Below, one piece after another: positions 44,101 to 47,100 of a DNA stretch of 64,000 nucleotides. Below the pieces are notes generated by a model that did not search any database, was not told the DNA's origin, and saw only the letters and a list, made by a program, of their open reading frames with translations. The position numbers and the translations under genes are program-made. How positions within the stretch are numbered: position 1 is the stretch's first letter; each line of letters starts with the position of its first letter. Location of the stretch: the IMG/VR virus record IMGVR_UViG_2690316311_000019; one strand, given 5' to 3'. Origin of the DNA: a virus (taxonomy: Duplodnaviria; Heunggongvirae; Uroviricota; Caudoviricetes).

Positions 44101-47100
44101 AGTACATACGCGGTCCATATCCCTGATTATTGAGAAGATCGGACGGGCTTTCTCGTGCTCAATCACGCCGTCTTCATTGACCGAGGTCGTTACGCCATTG
44201 TTGGCTTTGGCTGCCGCTTCCGCCTGCTGACGCAATTCTTCATACGCCGCCAGTTGTTCTTCAGTAAGTGGTGCATCCTGCTGGTGTTCGTCCAGTTCCG
44301 GGATCTCCACGGTATCCTTAACGTCTTCCGCCGTTTTAAGCGTTGTCCAGCGATGGAATATGCCGCGCAGCGCATCAAGGTTTTCAAAACCCACCAGCGC
44401 CATTTTTTCTTCAACTTCGCCGCTGATTTTCTGTACCGTTTCCAGCCTGGTCTTGCCGAAGAATTTAACGAAGTCATCAGGACCGTAGATCCCCATCTTC
44501 TGCCAGTATTCCTTCGGCAGCACATGAGAAAGCATGTTGTATGCATCGATCGGGGTGTTAACTACTGGCGTTGCAGTCAGGAGAACCGGTCCGCGCCCAC
44601 CATTCTTTTTCATCAGGTACGCGTTTTTGATTGCCATATCCCGCGCCGATTGCGCCACCGCGCTGGTGGGCAGATAGGCCAGTTGTGACGCTTCGCGACC
44701 ATTTTTATAGCTATTGCGGTAGTTGTGGCCTTCGTCAGCAATCACGCTGTCGAAGCCCATATCCTCAAAGTACGGATACTTCTCTGCTTTTTCGGTACCG
44801 GTATCTGAATACTCCGACAATACCCGGCGACGCGCCGCCTCTTTGCGATGGGAATCGGAGTCCATTGCGCTGGCCACACGCCCGGCAGCAACGAAGTCAT
44901 AAAGCATGTCTTGTGCATGCTCATCTACGGTGTCATCACGTAGCGGAATGCGGGCGTATTGTTCTTTGGTAAACACGACTGCACGGTAATTTGAGTGCGG
45001 GATCGCGTTCATCCGCGCCGTGATAGTGGCTTCATCTGCCAGCTTAAGAGCATCGCGCATAACTGGAGTGCCATCAGTACCAAGAACAGGTTTACCGTTC
45101 TCATCGAGCACCGGCACCTGGCGAATCTGATCGCCATCCATCAGCACATCAAGACCGACGAACAGGTAGTTACTGAATGCCTCTTCACTCAGGAACTCTT
45201 TTGCTTCGTAATACCAGTTTTCCAGCACTGCTTTAGGCACTACATAAGCAGTACGGGTGGAGCGACCGTTCTCATAGTTGAACGCCTCAAGCGCCAGCGC
45301 GGTCGTCGTTTTACCCAGCCCGGTGCCGAAGCCCAGGATGCCGCGCCCATCTTCGGACAGTCGGCGCACCTCGCTATTCTGGTAATCAAATGGCTGGCGC
45401 TTACCGCTTAATCCCTTCAACCCAAGCGGATCGCCAGAGTGTTCATACGGGATATTGCTATTGAACACATCGTTGTATTTGGCAACCAGCTCATCGTAGC
45501 GATCGTGCGTCTTGAGCCACTTATTGAACTGGTCCTCAAGCAGTGCCATCTGCTCGCGGTAGCCGTTCGCCGTCGCGCTATCTTTGCCACCGATACGCGC
45601 ACCATTGAGATACTTTTCCAGCTGTGCCGGGAACCCGGTCGCGTTTTCACCTGATTTACGGTCCCACTCGTAGCGGATCTCGCCTGTTTCTTTATCCTTG
45701 CGCTGGACGACACCGTATCGGTGTCCGACGAACAGACCATCACCACCGTGATAGGTGTCAGAAACCATTTCGTCGCCTTCCAGCTGCACTGACTGCACAT
45801 AGCGCAGATCCGGATAGCCGTTTTCCTGCAAAAATTCCAGAATGACGGAACGGTCGAACCAACGGCTATTGAGCTTAAAGCGGATATTCTCTGCTGGCGT
45901 CTTGATGCGCTTCTCTTCGATCGCTGCCAGCTGATTAAGGACGTTGTTCTTTACTGGACCGTCGGGGAGCGTGGCGAGGAATTCCTGTTTTGGAGCCACT
46001 ATCTCGTTAATGTCGCCGCTGGTGGCGCGGGCGAACGGAACAATCCCGCCATACGGTGAAACCGCAATACCAGGGGTGCTGGCCAATAAATTAAGCAACT
46101 CTTTATCACTGGCTGGCAGTTCGCCGGTAAACGCAAGGCGGAAATCATCGAGCTGGATTGGATCGCGGGTAAGATCGCTATAGAGATAACGCAGGATGTC
46201 CTGATAGCTGGTGGAGTCATAACTGGCGCTGGAATCATGCGTAACCAGCTTTCCTGTCAGCTCGTCAGAAATAGTGCCATCCAGCTTAATCGCACCACGG
46301 AAAGCAAACCAGGCGCGCGCACCGCTCCCCGACAATTTCGCTATAGGACCGCGACCAGGATTACCAAAGCGGTCAATCTCTGCCTGCAAACGGGATACCA
46401 GAGAAAGGCGCTGCTGTTCGATTTGTTCAGCACTATGCCCGGCGGCCTTCATATCCTGATATTCAATTAACATCCGGCCAATCATCGCCCCGCGATACAA
46501 GCGTTCACGGTATTTTTCAGGCTGGCTGTTAATCCAGTCCACCAGCTGCACCATATCGTCGCTGATTGATGTGGTGTACTTATCGCGGACATTTGCCATC
46601 TGGGTAAATGTCATGCCGAGACGACCTTCTGTGGTAGTCAGGTTACGCTGAAGAGCCTCCCAGCTATCCGCGCCATAACTGGCAACATCAATCTTCAGCT
46701 CCTTCCCGGCATCAGCTTCAATCCAGCGACCACCAGCATATTTTTGCCATACGCCATTAATCAGGCGCATTTCCCCTTCATCAACAACATCTGCGGTCGG
46801 TGACGGTTCAGCCATATCGAGCAAAGACCAGTCGATACGACTTTCGAAACGATGAATCAGCTTCGCTTTAAGAGCCAGGTTATCAATCTGCCCGTCGGCA
46901 CGAACCTCAATACGCCCCTGGAAACCCTTCTCCTGGGTGCCATGAACAAACCGGCGGCCGTCCTTTTCGAACCACTTGCCAGAAATAAACGTTGGCCAAA
47001 GCACATTTGCCGATTCAAGAGTGCCTTCATCCACCAGGGGGGATTTTCTCAGCCATCTCTGCCGGATGTTTACGCATCAGCACCACATCAACGACCGTAC

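Follow-up and report, generated by a model that had tools for sequence, protein, structure and literature searches.

A one-base homopolymer insertion in darB of a P1-like plasmid lineage found in Shiga-toxin-producing Escherichia coli

Why is the darB gene of a P1-like element read in two pieces? The element in question is represented by the viral record IMGVR_UViG_2690316311_000019 (Caudoviricetes), of which we analysed one stretch of 64,000 nucleotides, referred to throughout and at its full length as the window. The original prediction, made from the letters of this stretch, described a DarB-like gene on the minus strand that is interrupted at a homopolymer, and it offered three explanations: a homopolymer sequencing error, a genuine inactivating mutation, or slipped-strand phase variation of an antirestriction function. 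The second of these was upheld by many independent assemblies and by a pseudogene annotation in RefSeq, while agreement between sequencing platforms spoke against the first and the uniform length of the run against the third. We consider it very likely that a genuine, inherited insertion of one base made darB a pseudogene, and that the split gene represents neither an artefact nor a switch.

The split gene and its identity

The interruption coincides with a run of six G at 47037-47042 of the plus strand (G6), which reads as C6 on the darB sense strand and lies in the context ...CATCCACCA GGGGGG ATTTTCTCAGCC...; a regular-expression count of runs confirmed its length as predicted and found no second G6 run across the 64-kb window. 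The two minus-strand open reading frames (ORFs) that meet at this site (Table 1) were both recovered, in different frames, as originally described. The frame of the upstream ORF ends at a stop codon at 47027-47029, and translation of the three minus-strand frames places a stop at 47077-47079 in the frame of the downstream ORF, which is open from 47076 down and continues ...SPLVDEGTLESANV..., so that both frames are open at 47027-47076 only, the very overlap that had been claimed. An alternative start for the downstream ORF at ATG 46614, which is the one taken by gene callers, gives a product of 1830 residues. Deleting one base of the run in silico joined the two into one ORF of 2255 codons and a stop codon (...AEMAEKIPLVDEGTLES...) with no internal stop, in agreement with the expected length, and the repaired protein is identical to P1 DarB at 2224 of 2256 positions, the stop being counted with the 2255 residues, corresponding to 98.6% amino acid identity.

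P1 DarB is a head protein of 2255 residues and ~250 kDa that is present at ~40 copies per virion, and its first 30 N-terminal residues are enough to direct a protein into the capsid (PMC9024508). Restriction by EcoK and EcoB is inhibited by DarB, and P1 becomes sensitive to both when darB is deleted (PMC9024508, PMC11109961), and Ulx has been reported as an aid to its localisation (PMC9024508). In the P1 genome (AF234172) the gene occupies 6768 nucleotides between prt and ulx/lxc. Searches with P1 proteins (tblastn) recovered the same order in the window, namely prt at 47966-49669 on the plus strand, followed on the minus strand by darB (47890-41125), ulx (41088-40651) and lxc (40651-40406). 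A 701-bp query around the site matched 19 phage records at 96-98% identity, among them P1, P7, SJ46 and RCS47, in which the matching features are annotated as darB.

The assignment of methyltransferase motifs to the upstream ORF and of a DExH helicase to the downstream ORF was likewise borne out by Pfam. On the repaired protein, N6_Mtase/Eco57I covers residues 145-290 (90-282 on the 287-residue ORF), SNF2-rel/ResIII residues 833-911 and Helicase_C residues 1454-1517, which puts the frameshift at codons 283/284 on the C-terminal boundary of that methyltransferase domain. Compared with DarB of the Punavirus members P1 and P7 (AAQ13985.1/AAQ07489.1), the window shares the locus (prt, darB, ulx, lxc), the length after repair and the domain architecture, but its C5 run at codons 283/284 has gained one C, so that only a 287-residue product is predicted. 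P1 and P7 themselves have G5 at the homologous site and an intact darB, which substantiates the claim that the window gene is interrupted by a single base added to a homopolymer. The position of the gene, its sequence and its architecture (a methyltransferase followed by an SNF2/DExH helicase) identify it as a darB orthologue, but as a pseudogene, because the unbroken frame of ~2255 codons is missing. Residues 1-284 are 99.3% identical to those of P1 DarB, and for this reason the N-terminal capsid-targeting signal is probably kept in the 287-residue product.

Run length among relatives and carriers of the six-base run

Counting the run in related genomes, the check proposed alongside the original prediction, gave G5 in most relatives and G6 in 8 complete genomes and one IMG/VR contig. 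Run-length probes of 41 nucleotides were compared by megablast with 5,426 complete E. coli genomes. The G5 probe matched 444 records, 289 of them exactly and the other 155 at 97.6% identity. All four of the non-exact matches sampled have G5, and in the three drawn from the 97.6% band the mismatch is a T to C single-nucleotide polymorphism in the flank; the band of 155 records was seen as a spread sample, and a few G4 or G7 records are possible within it. The G6 probe matched exactly in only 8 records, and G5 is kept in ~436 of the 444. Among 85 IMG/VR loci counted with a gapped pattern, 82 have G5, one has G6 and two have AGGGG, a synonymous change from CTG to TTG on the sense strand, such that the frame is intact in 84/85. 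Most elements thus carry G5, with G6 a minority allele found in ~1-2% of elements in the complete-genome and IMG/VR sets. Two phage records, vB_EcoM-673R5 and vB_EcoM-813R1 (ON470615.2, ON470617.2), have G4 at the site and darB annotated in pieces, which may reflect sequencing errors or independent -1 mutations.

The 701-bp segment containing G6 is 100% identical to the window in 8 complete genomes, the next-best match being 98.4% identical and G5. These 8 carriers span the USA and Japan and comprise O165:H25 strain 2012C-4227 (NZ_CP013030.1; human, Oregon), O157:H7 strains F1273 (beef) and TX 376-2 (cattle), O111:H8 strains 7-54 11A, SF26 102-1 and SF4-1 (cattle and flies), strain 94_0962 (human) and O103:H2 strain CEC12044 (human, Japan); the IMG/VR contig with G6 also derives from an isolate. 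Across its 6769 nucleotides, darB of the window shows no difference from that of plasmid pF1273-3 and one nucleotide difference from that of 94_0962, with 16 positions differing in O111 7-54 and 71 in CEC12044. In 2012C-4227, moreover, the 3' part of darB is shorter by exactly 2000 bp (window 41171-43170 missing; junction at locus position 3471/3472). Given these differences and this deletion, the G6 alleles do not all stem from a single assembly. No obvious direct repeat was seen at the deletion junction, and the deletion may be either a real secondary loss or a problem of a PacBio-only assembly, the round number being suspicious.

The allele of the window is identical to those of the RefSeq pseudogenes from Shiga-toxin-producing E. 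coli (STEC), such as that on pF1273-3, and the plasmid backbone of the window differs from all of theirs. The window aligns with pF1273-3 at 99.55% identity across 37.7 kb, and for positions 14000-38000 no match comes closer than 97.7%. Since the window is identical to none of the 8 complete-genome records, it represents a further independent carrier, and on these alignments the plasmid backbones are mosaic around a shared darB allele. The allele is already known as an annotated pseudogene in RefSeq, which labels it 'N-6 DNA methylase, frameshifted' (E3159_RS27735 on pF1273-3, KP522_RS28620, KIM39_RS29615 and ACZ5LN_RS27875), and its truncated product is present in NCBI nr. A literature search found no paper describing the G6 darB allele; what is mildly new here is only how widely it is spread over STEC serotypes, and the mosaic backbones that carry it.

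Disruption of darB was also observed in the plasmids of O26 RM10386 (NZ_CP028125.1, where the gene is labelled 'frameshifted') and ETEC1737 (CP122779.1). Unlike the window, both have G5 at the site, so their darB genes were broken independently, at other places. These two and 2012C-4227 nevertheless share with the window a broken copy of the largest gene of the element, a condition that recurs in natural plasmid-prophages. Among the best 60 PLSDB records, four are without a darB coding sequence.

Artefact, switch or inherited insertion

A homopolymer artefact of sequencing or assembly, behind which the true run would be G5 and darB intact, is an explanation that we find scarcely credible. Single-base indels in homopolymers are typical of long-read assemblies, and the two phage records with G4 and split annotations may be such errors, but an origin of this kind is difficult to reconcile with G6 lying on one haplotype in 8 complete genomes that several laboratories produced. 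2012C-4227 was assembled with HGAP3 from PacBio RSII reads alone (PMC4683243) and CEC12044 by Unicycler from Illumina MiSeq and Oxford Nanopore Technologies reads (PMC12831630), so that two chemistries, one of them in an Illumina-first hybrid, give G6. Furthermore, C6 was read on the sense strand in 10/10 NCBI draft assemblies checked, and the exact 287-residue protein occurs on at least 1000 contigs in a collection of 15 billion proteins, whose index lists it in 1927 blocks, for the most part on contigs of 10-200 kb. Rather than being scattered at random, G6 is confined to one haplotype while ~436 other records have G5; it is reproducible across platforms and assemblies, and it is phylogenetically coherent. 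Sequencing error is effectively excluded as the source of the G6 allele, and the record of the window itself, although seen as an assembly only, gives no grounds for doubt.

Slipped-strand phase variation would have high-frequency switching of the tract turn antirestriction on and off within a population. It would account for the position of the mutation in a homopolymer, and run lengths of 4, 5, 6 and 7 are each present somewhere in the databases, yet the evidence from the haplotype itself makes it extremely unlikely. Homopolymer contingency loci are well known from the phase-variable mod genes of type I and type III restriction-modification systems, and contingency tracts are usually at least 7-8 nucleotides long. 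The darB site resembles phase-variable mod loci in that a change of one base in a G/C run switches the frame inside a gene of the DNA-methyltransferase family, but it differs from them in its short tract (5 nucleotides normally and 6 in the mutant), in having no conserved long repeat, and in showing no length heterogeneity in the haplotype bar one G7. G6 is uniform on the haplotype in 8/8 complete genomes, in the IMG/VR contig and in 10/10 draft loci, and the count over contigs is at least 1000 with G6, one with G7 and none with G4; frequent length differences among close isolates were not found. That 2/85 IMG/VR relatives break the run synonymously further indicates that it is not specially preserved. 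An exact-sequence look-up located the G7 product of the same haplotype on one 97-kb contig (EFK6215340.1), which reflects ordinary slippage mutability, a second step on an already mutated tract, and not switching, and it did not find the G4 product of the G6 haplotype. The full-length G5 protein of the haplotype, sought in two variants, was also not found, in a look-up of limited power that required all 2255 residues to be identical and is weak alone, as only ~66-68 contigs share the exact C-terminal part of the window; nor does any G5 copy of the 701-bp haplotype occur among the complete E. coli genomes. Phase variation is not supported.

The sequence change at this site, its distribution and the stability of G6 are matters of direct observation, and they are best accommodated by a mutation that is inherited. 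The insertion extended C5 to C6 on the sense strand, presumably through replication slippage, and is best read as having been inherited both vertically and horizontally, as a lineage of P1-like plasmids spread. From the usual start codon, translation would run to ...AEKIPPGG and stop after 287 residues, yielding a product expected to keep the N-terminal region and most of the methyltransferase domain and to lose the helicase, with ~1970 residues gone. Virions would be without functional DarB, with the other Dar proteins still packaged (hdf, darA, ddrA, ddrB and ulx are encoded), and in a new host the phage would be vulnerable to type I restriction of the EcoK/EcoB type. Such a loss of DarB may be tolerated as the element lives mainly as a plasmid.

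Comparisons of the repaired gene suggest that the insertion is recent. The ratio of nonsynonymous to synonymous substitution rates (dN/dS) between the repaired darB of the window and that of P1 is 0.09 overall, 0.05 in the 5' part and 0.096 in the 3' part, with no relaxed selection seen downstream of the frameshift in this comparison. All four of the distinct G6 alleles that could be repaired give a full-length frame, and the differences among G6 alleles, with a dN/dS of 0.14, are clustered in tracts that seem to have been brought in by recombination with intact alleles. Owing to the low dN/dS and the full-length repaired alleles, the mutation is best dated as recent relative to the divergence of the elements; it appears young, yet a haplotype frequent in STEC is fixed for it.

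Some considerations weigh against the view that an inherited insertion simply abolished darB. The allele of the window is known from assembled sequence and not from its reads, and the loss of DarB function with a restriction-sensitive phenotype is a prediction made from sequence. The 5.9-kb downstream frame is open in every carrier examined but 2012C-4227, which would fit a recent mutation but would also fit a second cistron that is still in use. Finally, the abundance of the allele, at 1000 contigs or more, shows that the element at least tolerates being without DarB, and some residual function may exist.

Such a function could take one of two forms, either +1 slippage of a tRNA-Pro that restores the frame or the production of two separate polypeptides, a packaged methyltransferase fragment and a restarted helicase, and we regard a frameshifted darB that still works in either way as quite improbable. 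The sequence AUC CCC CCU GGU GGA UGA is compatible with recoding, in that it lets a P-site tRNA-Pro re-pair one base downstream (AUC CCC C|CU), after which the shifted frame CUG GUG GAU gives the exact wild-type ...EKIP-LVDEG.... Sites of the CCC-C type are documented +1 slippery sites that operate at about the percent level or below. Beyond this slippery P-site codon, which is a matter of sequence compatibility only, the features of a prfB-type +1 site are missing: there is no stimulator, the A-site codon is an ordinary CCU with the stop three codons further on, no Shine-Dalgarno-like element lies upstream of C6 in GCUGAGAAAAUC, and with ~98% of relatives in frame this is not a conserved recoding site. 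Basal slippage, moreover, would not supply the ~40 copies of DarB that each virion contains (PMC9024508). For a split gene it can be said that every sampled variant other than 2012C-4227 retains the downstream frame and that the allele is very common. Against it stand the further 2 kb of the 3' part absent from that one carrier and the youth of the mutation, which simply explains the intact frame; inspection of the start regions also found no convincing ribosome-binding site before GTG 47034 or ATG 46614. That the C6 allele is leaky, giving traces of wild-type DarB by +1 slippage, or re-purposed, with a 287-residue capsid-targeted fragment performing a function of its own, is a long shot, but if true it could explain how the allele persists in many STEC P1-like plasmids with the 5.9-kb frame open.

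Taking darB as a pseudogene created by an inherited insertion has practical consequences for annotation. The split gene should be entered as one frameshifted pseudogene, neither as two genes nor 'corrected' as though it were an error. The P1-like lineage common in STEC (O157:H7, O111:H8, O103:H2 and O165:H25) probably yields virions without DarB, and the one-base insertion provides a convenient lineage marker, while knowledge of the Dar systems is unchanged by the G6 allele.

Features of the locus and state of the surrounding element

The features of the darB locus and of the dar operon are collected in Table 1. A terminator-like match at 47024-47041 on the plus strand was rejected as a feature; it lies on the antisense strand and amounts to the G run followed by T's.

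Table 1. Positions in the window of the darB locus, its homopolymer and associated dar genes
Feature	Position	Strand	Remarks
G6/C6 homopolymer	47037..47042	-	One base above the G5 of P1, P7 and ~98% of relatives; insertion at darB codons 283/284
Whole darB pseudogene (predicted)	41122..47890	-	6769 nt (P1: 6768 nt); same neighbours as in P1, prt and ulx
Upstream ORF	47027..47890	-	ATG start, 287 aa, ends ...MAEKIPPGG*; N-terminus homologous to the capsid-targeting region, plus most of the N6-adenine methyltransferase domain
Downstream ORF, other frame	41122..47034	-	1970 aa from GTG 47034; SNF2/DExH helicase and C-terminal part
ulx, intact	40648..41088	-	146 aa, 97.9% identical to P1 Ulx; downstream of darB
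Sigma-70-like promoter match	47943..47972	-	Upstream of darB, at the position of PdarB predicted in P1; consensus match only
dar operon partners	54909..60800	-	hdf 60192-60800, darA 58271-60187, ddrA 57909-58271, ddrB 54909-57893

A total of 28 P1 genes were matched in the window, and darB is the only gene of the Dar system that is broken, with hdf, darA, ddrA, ddrB, ulx and lxc each giving one full-length match to the P1 protein. Between mat and lxc, where P1 has EcoP1 res/mod, the window has a 316-residue ORF at 39391-40341 on the minus strand that carries a PIN-domain annotation in pF1273-3; a SIR2-family gene occupies the same spot in other G6 carriers (O103 CEC12044) and in ETEC1737. This position resembles a slot for variable defence genes, beside the anti-defence gene darB.

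Elsewhere in the element, two more of the 28 matched genes are decayed: a cra homologue at 36098-36318 on the plus strand is frameshifted through the loss of a single T near 36119 (P1 AAAGTGTCC, window AAAGGTCC), at a place with no homopolymer, and a KilAC-type antirepressor gene that follows an icd-like gene is divided between two overlapping ORFs at 33180-33953 and 33782-34297, also on the plus strand. Both of these genes are likewise flagged as frameshifted in pF1273-3, which in addition, outside the region covered by the window, has, within 11470-14216 of the locus compared, an IS3-family element in a bplA homologue, annotated 'bleomycin hydrolase', and a ppfA gene with an internal stop; this carrier, at least, is probably a defective prophage. 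Finally, an isaA homologue at 52224-53855 on the plus strand matches P1 IsaA in two same-frame pieces ~660 nucleotides apart, a pattern that points to sequence inserted or replaced in frame compared with P1.

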